From NCBI GenBank assembly GCA_937903155.1, contig CALCZU010000131.1, forward strand, positions 46,704-110,703: DNA of 64,000 nt, in the 5' to 3' direction. Shown in pieces: positions 33,532 through 48,103 of the stretch. The notes under the pieces are model-generated. The model saw nothing but the letters and a program-made list of their open reading frames with translations, was not told where the DNA came from and ran no database searches. This stretch comes from an uncultured Bdellovibrionales bacterium (GTDB lineage Bacteria; Bdellovibrionota; FAC87; UBA2466). Positions within the stretch are counted from its first letter, which is position 1; each line of letters starts with the position of its first letter. A program made the translations under genes and the position numbers.

Positions 33532-33948
33532 TTGGAAACGGGTTTCATCACTGCCTTTTGGTACTTGGCGATAGCAGCTTTAGTCGTCCCTTTAATGTTA
33601 GGGGCGGGCGCAATTTTAAGACCTAAACGCACCGGCGAAAATAAAAAGCTCGACGCTTATGAATGCGGCGAAGACGCGGTCGGTACAGCGTGGGTCAAAT
33701 TTAATATCCGTTTCTACGTCATCGCCATTATCTTTATTATCTTCGATGTCGAAATCACCGCCATTTTCCCCGTCGCCACCTTATATAAGGATGCCGTTGC
33801 GAACGGCACCGCAGGGTTAGTCTTTGGCGAAATTTTTCTCTTTATCGGCCTTCTCTTGGTAGGGCTTGTCTATTGTTGGACTCGCGGAGACTTAGAATGG
33901 GTAAAAGGGATAGCTCAGACTAAACCAAAGCGAGGTATCCATGGGTAG
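33532..33948 (+). CDS. nuoA: NADH-quinone oxidoreductase subunit A (copy 1)
   Basis: YECGEDAVG…FDVE motif; 3 TM helices; TTG start. Confidence 0.85.
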   Translation: METGFITAFWYLAIAALVVPLMLGAGAILRPKRTGENKKLDAYECGEDAVGTAWVKFNIRFYVIAIIFIIFDVEITAIFPVATLYKDAVANGTAGLVFGEIFLFIGLLLVGLVYCWTRGDLEWVKGIAQTKPKRGIHG

Positions 33949-35092
33949 TCACTCAGCCGCTTTTGCGCACTCACTTCAGGGATGGACTGCGGGACTTCCG
34001 ATCCTCGGCGCCACCCCACTATGGATTTGGGCGTTTCTTTCGGCCCTTCTTGTCATTTTTCTTTTAGCGCTGCCTTTTGGAGGCATTGCCACTTACGTCG
34101 AACGTAAAGTCGCGGCCGATATTCAAGATCGCATCGGTCCGAATCGTGTGGGTCCGATTGGGCTTCTTCAGTTTTTCGCAGATGCCGTTAAGATGCTTGC
34201 GAAAGAGGATTTCATTCCGCGCGGAGCCGATAAGTTTCTTTATAATTTAGCCCCTGTTTTAGTGGTCGTGGGAGCTTGCGGCGCCTTTGCTGTCTTGCCT
34301 CTTGCGAAAGCACTGGTCGGTGCAGATCTGAATATTGGCATTTTTTATTTAGTCGCTGTCACGACTTTAATTGCGCCGGGAATGCTTCTCGGATCTTGGG
34401 GATCGCAAAATAAATGGTCGCTTCTCGGTGGTCTTCGCGGCGCTGCTCAAATTGTCAGTTACGAAATCCCGGTCGCACTTTCGATTTTGCCGGTTGTTTT
34501 AATTTCGGGAACGCTCCAAATCGGCTCGATTGTCGAACAACAGGGCTGGGTTTGGCAGGGGGAAATGATGAAGAATTATCATTTCTGGAACATGTTCCAC
34601 AATCCTTTCACAATGTTCTCCGTTTTCATTCTTTTTGTCGGCGGTCTTGCGGAAACGAACCGCATTCCATTCGATTTACCAGAAGCCGAATCCGAACTGG
34701 TTTCGGGATTTAATACCGAGTTTTCCGGAATGCGTTTCGGCCTTTATGCGCTGGGCGAATTCTGCGATGTTTTCGTGATGTCTGCGATGGTGACGGCGCT
34801 CTACTTAGGTGGCTGGCAGGTTCCGTTTTTAAATCTTGAAAACATGTGGGTGACACTTCCCTCCGGTTTAATCGCAATTATTCATTTCAGCATGTTTATG
34901 GCGAAAACACTTTTCGTTGTTTTTATCGTGATGTGGCTCCGGTGGACTCTTCCCCGCTTACGCGTCGATCAATTGATGGGCTTTTGTTGGAAAGGTTTAA
35001 TGCCAATTGCCTTTTTTAACGTGATTGGAACGGCTCTGTGGATGTGGATTTTCCACGGGAAATCCATGATGCAATTGGTGATGGGGCAATAA
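33941..35092 (+). CDS. nuoH: NADH-quinone oxidoreductase subunit H (copy 1)
   Basis: DRIGPNRVGPIGLLQFFADAVKMLAKED signature of NuoH/ND1. Confidence 0.9.
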   Translation: MGSHSAAFAHSLQGWTAGLPILGATPLWIWAFLSALLVIFLLALPFGGIATYVERKVAADIQDRIGPNRVGPIGLLQFFADAVKMLAKEDFIPRGADKFLYNLAPVLVVVGACGAFAVLPLAKALVGADLNIGIFYLVAVTTLIAPGMLLGSWGSQNKWSLLGGLRGAAQIVSYEIPVALSILPVVLISGTLQIGSIVEQQGWVWQGEMMKNYHFWNMFHNPFTMFSVFILFVGGLAETNRIPFDLPEAESELVSGFNTEFSGMRFGLYALGEFCDVFVMSAMVTALYLGGWQVPFLNLENMWVTLPSGLIAIIHFSMFMAKTLFVVFIVMWLRWTLPRLRVDQLMGFCWKGLMPIAFFNVIGTALWMWIFHGKSMMQLVMGQ

Positions 35093-46637: not shown

Positions 46638-48103
46638 ATGCAATTTACGAATATTTCTTTCTGCCTTTAAGCCCGGTTTTAGCGTTGGTGTTTGCGGGGC
46701 TTTTATTGATTGTGCTCGAATGCGTGTCGGAAGAAGGGCTAAAGCCTTTAAAGTCGACCGTCGCTTTTTTAGGGCCCTTGATTTCTCTTTATTATGTTTT
46801 TCAACTTTCATTTACATCGGGATTGGCTTTTAGTGATCCTTCGAGCTTAACCGGTCCGGTTTGGCTGGTAGAGTTTACCAAAATCTACAAACTCGATGGA
46901 ATGACGCTCAATTTTTTCTGGGCGATCGATGTCTTTTTGTTGCTCACCTTACTTTTCTTCCATTCGTTTTATGAAGAGTGGTTAGAACGGAATGAACTTT
47001 TGATCTTAATCGAATTTATTTCTGTCGGAATGATGATTTTAGTTTCGGCAAATGATCTTCTCATGCTGTTTTTAGGCTTGGAACTCATGTCCCTTCCGAC
47101 CTATGTGATTGTCGGCTTTAGACGTGAAAATGTGAAATCCTGCGAAGCGGCACTGAAATATTTTCTGTTTGGCTCTTTTGGGACAGTCCTTCTGTTACTT
47201 TCGGTCGCCATTTTATACGGGCAATTTGGAACCCTAAAAACCGGGCAACTCCAGTTTCTATTAGCTCAGACGTCGAACCTTTCAAATCCCGCGGTTTTAG
47301 TTTCGTTAGGACTGATGTTGGCGGCGGTCGGATTTAAAATCGGAATGACTCCCTTCCAAATGTGGTTGCCGGACGCTTACGAAGGAGCGCCGACAAGCAT
47401 CACGGGTTTTATGGGAAGTGCCGTCAAGCTTGCGAGCTTTGGTTTAGCCATCCGAATTTTTGGAGGCGTCTTTCTTCCATTAGCCGAAAAATGGATGGGC
47501 CTCATGAGTTGGTTTGCGGTCATCAGTATTTTTGTCGGCAACTTATGTGCGCTCAGACAAAAAAATCTCAAGAGACTTTTCGCATATTCGAGTATTGCGC
47601 ACGCAGGTTTTATTATCTTAGGGGTCGCCGCATTGCCGAAGGACGCTCAAAGCCAACAGATGATTTATTACTATCTTGTGACTTACGGAATGATGTTTTT
47701 AGGAGTCTTCGCGTTTTTAAATCTCATGGAACAAAACGGAAAGTCTTTGGAATTTTCGAATCTCTCGGGACTCGGATTTCGAAATCCGGTACTCGGAATT
47801 GCTTTAGCAATCTTCGTATTCTCTGCTGCAGGTATTCCTCCGACGGCAGGTTTTTTCGCGAAATATTTCATCCTTTTTGAAAGTGTTAAAACTCAAGGGG
47901 TCTTGTTCGCGGTCTTAGCGGTGATCTCCAGTGCGATGGGAATTTATTACTATTTAAAAGTCATTGTGCATCTCTACATGCAGGACGCAAGTGGTGGTTC
48001 CAAACTCGCTGTGCAAAGTACGAGCACCTATATTGCAATTCTCATTTGCGCGGCAAGCCTCCTCTTCTTCTCGATCTTTCCAGGTCGCCTCGGCGTTTTC
48101 TAA
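46634..48103 (+). CDS. nuoN: NADH-quinone oxidoreductase subunit N (copy 2)
   Basis: MWLPDAYEGAPTSITGF. Confidence 0.9.
   Translation: MNAIYEYFFLPLSPVLALVFAGLLLIVLECVSEEGLKPLKSTVAFLGPLISLYYVFQLSFTSGLAFSDPSSLTGPVWLVEFTKIYKLDGMTLNFFWAIDVFLLLTLLFFHSFYEEWLERNELLILIEFISVGMMILVSANDLLMLFLGLELMSLPTYVIVGFRRENVKSCEAALKYFLFGSFGTVLLLLSVAILYGQFGTLKTGQLQFLLAQTSNLSNPAVLVSLGLMLAAVGFKIGMTPFQMWLPDAYEGAPTSITGFMGSAVKLASFGLAIRIFGGVFLPLAEKWMGLMSWFAVISIFVGNLCALRQKNLKRLFAYSSIAHAGFIILGVAALPKDAQSQQMIYYYLVTYGMMFLGVFAFLNLMEQNGKSLEFSNLSGLGFRNPVLGIALAIFVFSAAGIPPTAGFFAKYFILFESVKTQGVLFAVLAVISSAMGIYYYLKVIVHLYMQDASGGSKLAVQSTSTYIAILICAASLLFFSIFPGRLGVF

Follow-up and report, generated by a model that had tools for sequence, protein, structure and literature searches.

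Two nuoAHJKLMN gene sets of probably separate complex I ancestry lie in tandem in an uncultured Bdellovibrionales bacterium

Introduction

The nuo genes of Bdellovibrio, which encode respiratory complex I, have been classed as 'split' by Degli Esposti (PMC4758237). For strain HD100 the metabolic model iCH457 assembles complex I from 13 genes, Bd3892-Bd3886 (A, H, J, K, L, M, N) together with Bd3086, 3085, 3084, 3083, 3081 and 3080 (B, CD, E, F, G, I) (PMC7529429, supplement file 7), with mfd (Bd3893) next to the former group and protease genes (Bd3087 and Bd3079) beside the latter (PMC12546842). Since proteome tables from 2025 list subunits of both operons as detected (B, CD, E, F, G, I, H, J, L and M; PMC12546842, supplement 3), a complex I split over two operons is evidently produced in HD100. 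Here we describe a locus from an uncultured Bdellovibrionales bacterium (GenBank assembly GCA_937903155.1, contig CALCZU010000131.1), where a stretch of 64,000 nucleotides (nt), referred to throughout as the window, carries two successive nuoAHJKLMN sets, copy 1 and copy 2, at positions 33532-48103 and no gene for the peripheral arm. This locus is best explained as encoding two complete, functional membrane arms of complex-I-type enzymes, which would stem from two evolutionary lineages.

Two other groups of organisms provide close parallels. A 2026 study reports that every member of the Bdellovibrionota it covered has a nuoAHJKLMN cluster at one and the same chromosomal site, and that predatory strains have a second nuo cluster, which is complete in Peredibacter but split in Bdellovibrio; identity between the two clusters of Peredibacter is 37.5-41.5% (PMC13147790). 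Marine actinomycetes (Salinispora, Streptomyces and Kocuria) possess an extra partial operon, nuoA-hyp-H-J-K-L-M-N, beside a complete nuo operon, and this has been interpreted as an ion pump aiding osmoadaptation (PMC6676996).

Results

Two membrane-arm gene sets and no peripheral-arm gene

The original prediction for the window, made from its sequence alone, had placed the genes A-H-J-K-L-M-N there twice in the same order, and both Pfam and NCBIfam bear this out. All 14 plus-strand open reading frames (ORFs) between 33532 and 48103 matched the expected Pfam family with E-values of 1e-24 to 1e-115, namely Oxidored_q4 for A, NADHdh for H, Oxidored_q3 for J and Oxidored_q2 for K (in Pfam terms complex I chains 3, 1, 6 and 4L, respectively), and Proton_antipo_M, with or without its N and C companions, for L, M and N. 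The top NCBIfam model was the matching Nuo subunit for every one of the 14 proteins, never Mrp, Hyf or Fpo, and TIGR01974 (L), TIGR01972 (M) and TIGR01770 (N) scored above their cut-offs in both sets. By tblastn the window holds exactly six antiporter-like genes, each set contributing one L, one M and one N. Mrp antiporters are the known stand-alone relatives of these proteins and lack NuoH, NuoA and NuoJ; an Mrp identity was rejected, given the presence of all three in both sets and Mrp scores far below those of the Nuo models (for NuoL of copy 1, 323 versus 607 bits).

Peripheral-arm genes were sought with the Escherichia coli MG1655 proteins NuoB, NuoCD, NuoE, NuoF, NuoG and NuoI, and none was found by tblastn in six frames of the 64 kb (best E = 0.2), the same search recovering 14 out of 14 membrane genes. 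There was likewise no credible match in the window to the signature motifs of NuoB, NuoD, NuoF or NuoI, and Pfam revealed no redox module among its other 50 larger ORFs. The claimed absence of nuoB, C, D, E, F, G and I thereby extends to the whole window; a peripheral gene overlooked in another frame, which the prediction had named as the finding that would overturn it, is rejected by the six-frame search, and we agree that the peripheral arm must be encoded elsewhere, outside these 64 kb.

The two sets are strongly diverged, with blastp identities of 38% (A), 43% (H), 26% (J), 39% (K), 40% (L), 41% (M) and 31% (N). For NuoK a value near 35% had been proposed, so that its low identity stands while the figure itself is slightly revised; the NuoL lengths, 683 amino acids (aa) in copy 1 and 623 in copy 2, are exactly as proposed. 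Only 9 nt separate the end of nuoN1 (41009) from the start of nuoA2 (41019). The remaining junctions span -55 to +12 nt with the starts listed by the ORF finder and narrow to -8 to +12 nt with likelier starts for nuoJ1 (35092), nuoJ2 (42442) and nuoK2 (42932). Because the starts at 35092 and 42932 are moved in this way, the long H1/J1 and J2/K2 overlaps of the raw ORF list vanish; both positions have a better context and give gene lengths that match those of relatives. TTG starts had been assigned to both nuoA genes. That of nuoA2 is supported by relatives, which carry ATG, GTG or TTG followed by GAA at the equivalent position, while that of nuoA1 is simply the first start in its ORF.

The tandem is conserved in a lineage

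Related loci (given handles beginning with L) were fetched and annotated by blastp against the E. coli subunits and both window sets. L001-L003 show the order A1-N1 followed by A2-N2 as well, as do 15 genomes that represent species (L009-L023) and carry the label Pseudobdellovibrionaceae, Bdellovibrionaceae or Bdellovibrionales, as far as their contigs extend. The closest named relative is a metagenome-assembled genome (MAG) of an 'uncultured Pseudobdellovibrionaceae bacterium', with NuoH2 86% identical, followed at 60-67% by MAGs labelled Bdellovibrionaceae, Bdellovibrionales, 'Bdellovibrio sp. ZAP7' or Deltaproteobacteria. At identities falling to about 60%, the tandem is conserved across a lineage that comprises at least 15 species-level genomes.

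The spacer between nuoN1 and nuoA2 measures 0-30 nt in 13 related genomes, some of which have TAAATG there and others a Shine-Dalgarno-like AGGAGG before nuoA2. Promoter and terminator scans of the window gave counts not above those of shuffled sequence, and neither type of site was seen at the plus-strand junction between the two sets (41010-41018). From a spacer this short and the lack of a terminator-like site within it we infer, as is natural, that a single transcript probably covers both sets.

Both sets are intact and under purifying selection

Each protein was aligned with its E. coli counterpart, and the residues that in complex I make up the proton channels and the junction with the quinone (Q) module were read. 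They comprise E144, K229, H254, H334, H338, K342, K399 and D400 of NuoL, E144, K234, K265 and E407 of NuoM, E133, K217, K247 and K395 of NuoN, the Glu pair E36 and E72 of NuoK, Y59 in transmembrane helix 3 of NuoJ, and, for the E-channel and quinone loop, E36, R37, D63, E157, D213, E216, E220, E228 and R291 of NuoH along with E51, D79 and E81 of NuoA. E. coli carried the expected letter at every position read. Of 46 reference positions taken to be conserved, 45 are kept in copy 1 (the exception being D82N in NuoL) and 45 in copy 2 (K303G in NuoH); a relative with about 60% identity retains the channel and junction residues in each of its two copies as well. NuoJ E80 is kept in neither copy and is probably not a conserved site. 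The Lys, Glu and His residues of the channels, singled out earlier as the place where a decaying duplicate would betray itself, are present in both copies, which argues against such decay.

Compared with the closest relative (L009), the proportion of nonsynonymous differences (pN) ranges from 0.07 to 0.24 and that of synonymous differences (pS) from 0.65 to 0.78, the latter being saturated, over all 14 genes. For every subunit in this comparison the rate of change in copy 2 is about 1.5 times that in copy 1, making copy 1 the more strongly conserved set. These substitution patterns indicate that both copies are under strong purifying selection and that neither is decaying. Because the quinone-tunnel and E-channel residues of NuoH and NuoA are kept in both, both arms would have to dock onto a NuoB-NuoD-NuoI module.

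Two lineages of complex I

In three other Bdellovibrionota (L044, L046 and L053) the genes M1 and N1 are followed directly by a complete operon, A B C D E F G H I J K L M N, and in a fourth locus (L090) a copy 1-type set and a complete operon are separated by a 3-kb insert of three unrelated genes. We built neighbour-joining distance trees, which carry no support values, for NuoM and NuoH. In both trees the downstream copies, including copy 2 of the window, group with complete 14-gene operons, among them those of Gemmatimonadota, Acidobacteriota and Poribacteria, while the upstream copies, including copy 1, group with stand-alone AHJKLMN clusters from GCA_020722895.1 (L004) and a KSB1 genome (L006); copy 1-type clusters stand alone at their locus in L004/L005 and in L006. 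The upstream clade also holds fast-evolving 10-gene clusters (A' B' D' H' I' J' K' L' M' N') that adjoin mfd, upstream of the complete operon, in many Bdellovibrionota.

A recent duplication is rejected by the 26-43% identities and by the placement of the copies in different clades, so that the great age previously ascribed to the sets is upheld. Their description as paralogues arising from duplication of a membrane arm is not: by these groupings copy 1 and copy 2 belong to two complex I lineages rather than being paralogues of one duplicated membrane-arm operon. Copy 2 is best described as the remainder of a complete 14-gene operon, of the sort seen in other Bdellovibrionota, after B-G and I had left, and copy 1 as the orphan nuoAHJKLMN cluster found across this phylum. 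The simplest history would start from an ancestor with two adjacent complex I operons, one of a kind without E, F and G and the other with the full 14 genes; peripheral genes would then have been lost from the first operon in many lineages, and in that of the window from the second as well. The gene nuoH2 sits immediately 3' of nuoA2, at the site that B-C-D-E-F-G occupy in complete operons, and nuoJ2 immediately 3' of nuoH2, at the site of nuoI. Since A2 and H2 overlap by 1 nt and H2 and J2 by 4 nt, these short overlaps suggest a settled operon rather than a fresh deletion.

Several observations were made on related clusters. In a Deltaproteobacteria MAG (isolate OFTM216; L064, 2190-9399), A-H-J-K-L-M-N of the copy 2 (14-gene) type occurs as a single set, and the 2 kb upstream of it contain neither B-G nor I; given this locus, stripping of peripheral genes from a 14-gene-type operon may have occurred more than once. 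The divergent clusters (L089, 1-8443; L093, 329-9128; L095, 1-8527; and most of L099-L147) lack C, E, F and G; their NuoH shares only about 30% identity with NuoH1 or NuoH2 of the window, and their NuoL-like protein is often without a Pfam match. The one in L095 includes four antiporter-like genes (587, 453, 485 and 484 aa). In the complete operons of L044, L046, L053, L089-L095 and L178, NuoG measures about 460-490 aa, compared with 908 aa in E. coli, and the molybdopterin-like C-terminal part of these short proteins appears to be largely missing.

A lengthened lateral helix in NuoL of copy 1

The most unusual single feature of the locus, absent from the first reading of it, lies in NuoL1. 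This protein exceeds NuoL2 by 60 residues, and part of the excess is a 27-residue tandem repeat in the amphipathic lateral helix (HL), whose motif FDDxVVDRxFVDG appears as FDDMVVDRIFVDG at residues 605-617 and again as FDDLIVDRVFVDG at residues 632-644 (approximately nt 37745-37864). When solved structures were searched with phmmer, residues 604-610 of cyanobacterial NdhF (6hum_F) aligned to both repeats. The repeat is present in every copy 1-type NuoL that could be read, those of L004 and KSB1 included, and in no copy 2-type or 14-gene-type NuoL compared. A single-sequence AlphaFold2 model of NuoL1 was unusable (mean pLDDT, the confidence score of the model, 41); it drew a helix-break-helix around the two VDG motifs, to which we gave no weight.

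An HL insertion of 26 residues is the hallmark of complex I variants that have a fourth pumping subunit (Chadwick et al. 2018, cited through PMC9040806), and similar insertions occur in some three-pump complexes of 'Ca. Manganitrophaceae' (PMC9040806). Relative to this '2M' complex I, the insertion of NuoL1 is of the same kind and at the same position, with 27 residues here against the 26 reported (PMC9040806), but the defining second nuoM is found in neither window set, nor did tblastn detect a seventh antiporter-like gene in the window. The three-pump complexes give the helix of NuoL1 a precedent, not an explanation.

The individual genes

The following features all lie on the plus strand, and residues are in E. 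coli numbering. In copy 1, nuoA (33532-33948; 138 aa from the listed TTG; PF00507, 1.8e-30; best NCBIfam model NuoA) keeps K46, E51, D79 and E81. The adjoining nuoH (33941-35092; 383 aa; PF00146, 2.4e-107) has an N-terminal extension relative to its copy 2 counterpart and keeps E36, R37, D63, K70, E71, E157, D213, E216, E220, E228, K274, R291 and K303. For nuoJ (35092-35610; PF00499, 6.1e-31; Y59 and G61 kept) the ORF finder gave a start at 35038, but the likelier ATG at 35092 overlaps the nuoH stop and yields 172 aa, its counterpart in a relative having 173. Next come nuoK (35607-35930; 107 aa; PF00420, 5.8e-24), with E36 and E72 kept, and nuoL (35933-37984; 683 aa), whose NCBIfam NuoL score of 607 bits is above cut-off and which keeps E144, D178, K229, H254, H334, H338, K342, K399, D400 and D563, D82 being replaced by N. 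The set closes with nuoM (37997-39517; 506 aa; TIGR01972, 586 bits; E144, K234, K265, H322, H348 and E407 kept) and nuoN (39528-41009; 493 aa from a GTG; TIGR01770, 383 bits; E133, K158, K217, K247, H305 and K395 kept). A database protein 100% identical to NuoN1 (P0001) is 489 aa long, which fits an ATG at 39540.

Copy 2 begins with nuoA (41019-41381; 120 aa, TTG; PF00507, 1.6e-27), in which K46, E51, D79 and E81 are again kept, and nuoH (41381-42445; 354 aa; PF00146, 6.1e-115), which retains the residues listed for NuoH1 save that K303 is G. For nuoJ (42442-42939; PF00499, 1.2e-31) the listed start is 42430 and the likelier ATG, at 42442, overlaps the nuoH2 stop and gives 165 aa. For nuoK (42932-43243; PF00420, 7.1e-24; E36 and E72 kept) the listed start is 42887 and the likelier ATG, at 42932, stands behind GAAGGAG and gives 103 aa. 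In nuoL (43240-45111; 623 aa; NCBIfam NuoL, 693 bits) the lateral helix is of ordinary length and all listed residues are kept, as they are in nuoM (45108-46637; 509 aa; TIGR01972, 568 bits) and nuoN (46634-48103; 489 aa; TIGR01770, 359 bits).

Surroundings of the locus

Elsewhere in the window the larger ORFs encode sensor kinases, a sigma-54 activator, small heat-shock and other stress proteins, peptidases, an MbnB/DUF2063 pair, an iron-type ABC transporter, MutS and GrpE, and Rfam gave no match in the window. The region 839-10786 is rich in stress and signalling genes, with a tandem-Usp protein, a CBS pair, a PAS hybrid histidine kinase, a sigma-54 activator, a lone receiver, Hsp20, DUF2267 and a second PAS kinase. 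At 28933-30580 on the plus strand an enzyme of the MbnB/TglH/ChrH family (PF05114, 3.6e-104) precedes a DUF2063 protein; such pairs modify small ribosomal peptides. Immediately 3' of the nuo genes, at 48250-51201 and 53964-58849, lie seven ORFs of 202-554 aa without a Pfam match; the two minus-strand ORFs at 49916-51201 resemble, in size and position, two unannotated minus-strand genes 3' of the tandem in L001 and L002.

Discussion

Which peripheral arm do the two membrane arms use?

The original prediction had offered two alternatives, a single peripheral arm for both sets or docking to different electron-input modules, and these are still the two leading hypotheses. The reading we favour, and to which we would assign an even chance when it is taken as a whole package with its separate lineages and co-transcription, is that the organism makes two complex I isoforms that differ in the entire membrane arm and are served by one set of peripheral-arm genes, whose location, number and sharing in this genome we infer. 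Copy 2 would be the membrane half of an ordinary 14-subunit NADH:quinone oxidoreductase from which nuoB-G and nuoI were cleanly removed between A and H and between H and J, these genes now residing, by analogy with HD100, in a separate nuoB-CD-E-F-G-I operon. Combined with such a set, copy 2 would most likely form an ordinary NADH:quinone oxidoreductase, and copy 1 would draw on the same peripheral genes. Both arms would be parts of redox-driven ion pumps and not free-standing antiporters, because the conserved residues of the NuoH loop and of NuoA only make sense against NuoB and NuoD.

The peripheral genes were looked for through NuoD, with a profile of three Bdellovibrionota NuoD proteins and a fused NuoCD query, and by a metagenome scan with a fused-NuoCD alignment that returned 80 loci. 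The NuoD/NuoCD matches inspected lay in complete operons (L089, L090, L092, L093, L095 and L178) or, once, in a B-CD-I operon (L160), and nearly all of the 80 metagenome loci consisted of a divergent nuo-like cluster and a complete operon. The B-CD-I operon (L160, 9298-12182) is a stand-alone nuoB, fused nuoCD and nuoI of 'Bdellovibrionales bacterium GWA2_49_15', identical to P0251, located between a fumarase and a ferritin-like gene; over a distance of about 9 kb neither E, F or G nor a membrane-subunit gene is present. The operon is preceded on its own strand by two ORFs that have no annotation (157 and 208 aa).

Five points weigh against a shared peripheral arm. No peripheral-arm genes could be tied to any tandem-bearing genome among the inspected NuoD/NuoCD matches, and an HD100-like B-CD-E-F-G-I operon appeared neither among these nor among the 80 metagenome loci. 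The L160 operon makes a separate Q-module for the orphan arm a real, possible alternative to sharing. The presence of both arms on one transcript would be odd if they were alternatives for different conditions. HD100, with its one membrane set, is a precedent for the split and not for two arms on one peripheral arm. Finally, sharing does not explain the lengthened helix of NuoL1, for which there is no matching fourth pump gene.

The foremost alternative, possible in our view and clearly the less probable, is that the two arms belong to separate enzymes, each with its own peripheral module elsewhere and nothing shared. Copy 2 together with nuoB-C/D-E-F-G-I would oxidise NADH, while copy 1 would pair with a small nuoB-CD-I Q-module and, having no NADH-binding E, F and G, would form an enzyme of the 11-subunit type that accepts electrons from another donor, for example a ferredoxin-like carrier. 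A stand-alone operon of the required content does exist in L160, and the clade of copy 1 holds clusters with their own B', D' and I' and without E, F and G (L089, L093 and L095), from which it follows that the ancestor of copy 1 probably had a private Q-module; the copies are, moreover, only 26-43% identical, even in the NuoH and NuoA subunits that contact NuoB and NuoD. Yet a B-CD-I operon was found at only 1 of the 80 metagenome loci around fused NuoCD, its CD protein groups with those of ordinary complete operons (65% identity to P0252) rather than with B' and D' of the divergent clusters, no such operon is tied to a tandem-bearing genome, and HD100 has a single peripheral set.

More doubtful is an extension of sharing in which one NADH-oxidising peripheral arm docks alternately on two whole membrane arms and the lengthened helix of copy 1 holds a fourth pump encoded by an unlinked gene. 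We also think it improbable, and a little more so, that copy 1 is a stand-alone cation or proton transporter without any peripheral arm, only copy 2 taking part in a true complex I. Such a role was suggested for the extra partial operon of the marine actinomycetes (PMC6676996), and copy 1-type clusters are alone at their locus in L004/L005 and in KSB1 (L006). Against it, copy 1 is the more strongly conserved set, retains a NuoH and a NuoA with every tested residue of the quinone-tunnel loop and E-channel, and has Nuo models as its best NCBIfam matches, well above Mrp, and a lone membrane arm would have no energy input for pumping. That one set is a decaying or silent duplicate left by rearrangement, as the faster evolution of copy 2 in every subunit and the sufficiency of one set in HD100 might suggest, is contradicted by the sequence and very improbable, given 14 of 14 open frames with the tested catalytic residues kept, pN far below saturated pS in both sets, retention of the tandem in at least 15 species-level genomes to about 60% identity, and tidy, overlapping gene junctions like those of a working operon.

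Implications

Complex I is generally regarded as a fixed assembly with genes that stay together, and here a whole lineage maintains two full membrane arms under strong selection with no peripheral arm in cis. Should the favoured reading hold and one peripheral arm serve both, the junction of the Q-module with NuoH and NuoA would tolerate partners that are only about 40% identical, and the membrane arm would be exchangeable as a unit, which bears on the modular evolutionary assembly of complex I. Should each arm have a module of its own, bacteria of the predatory type would run two differently fuelled pumps. Under alternate docking with a fourth pump, two ion-per-electron ratios could be obtained by swapping the whole arm, the quinone-site subunit NuoH included, a modularity that to our knowledge has yet to be shown for any complex I. 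In any of these cases the locus offers a compact natural system in which to study how orphan membrane arms, which also exist in actinomycetes and KSB1, are assembled, and it makes a puzzle of the role of a lengthened NuoL helix where the window holds no gene for a fourth pump.

Comparison with known systems

Cyanobacteria offer a precedent for alternative membrane modules on one set of remaining subunits, in that their NDH-1 isoforms (NDH-1L, NDH-1MS and others) combine a common core with different NdhD and NdhF paralogues. The exchange there is confined to the distal antiporter-like subunits, whereas the window doubles the entire arm, NuoH, A, J and K included. The partial operon of actinomycetes resembles our sets in being restricted to the membrane arm and additional to normal complex I genes; it differs in coming from another phylum, in having a hypothetical gene between A and H, and in being a single extra set, a tandem with a second stripped set not being described there. 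An orphan AHJKLMN beside a complete nuoA-N is also the arrangement of the relatives L044, L046, L053 and L090, while the set next to the orphan one in the window has likewise been reduced to AHJKLMN.

Nearest of all is HD100, a member of the same phylum with a membrane-only nuoAHJKLMN operon that has no B, C, D, I, E, F or G in cis, the form that both window sets take. Its membrane operon adjoins mfd (Bd3893), and the cluster is likewise near mfd in the window relatives L001 and L004; HD100 has one membrane set where the window has two in tandem. The sequence of a quantitative PCR primer for bd3891 (PMC3627812 supplement) encodes IQDRLGP, which among the sequences compared here is otherwise found only in 14-gene-type NuoH, and no B. 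bacteriovorus protein is among the 120 best matches to NuoN1; both are weak hints that the HD100 membrane set may be of the copy 2 type. Peredibacter starrii also combines an orphan cluster with a second nuo cluster (37.5-41.5% identity there, in line with 26-43% here), but the second cluster is a complete 14-gene operon, while in the window it consists of seven membrane genes that abut the orphan cluster (PMC13147790). As far as the text examined goes, that study describes neither a tandem of two membrane-only sets nor the NuoL helix insertion.

The original prediction had called the arrangement unusual. The doubling is new, but a membrane-only operon of a split complex I is already documented in Bdellovibrio (PMC4758237, PMC13147790, PMC7529429), and with membrane-only and peripheral-only nuo operons known in Bdellovibrionota the arrangement is less unusual than was first claimed. 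What is new, as far as the literature examined shows, is the stripped second set abutting the orphan set, its probable derivation from a complete operon, and the helix repeat in the orphan NuoL.

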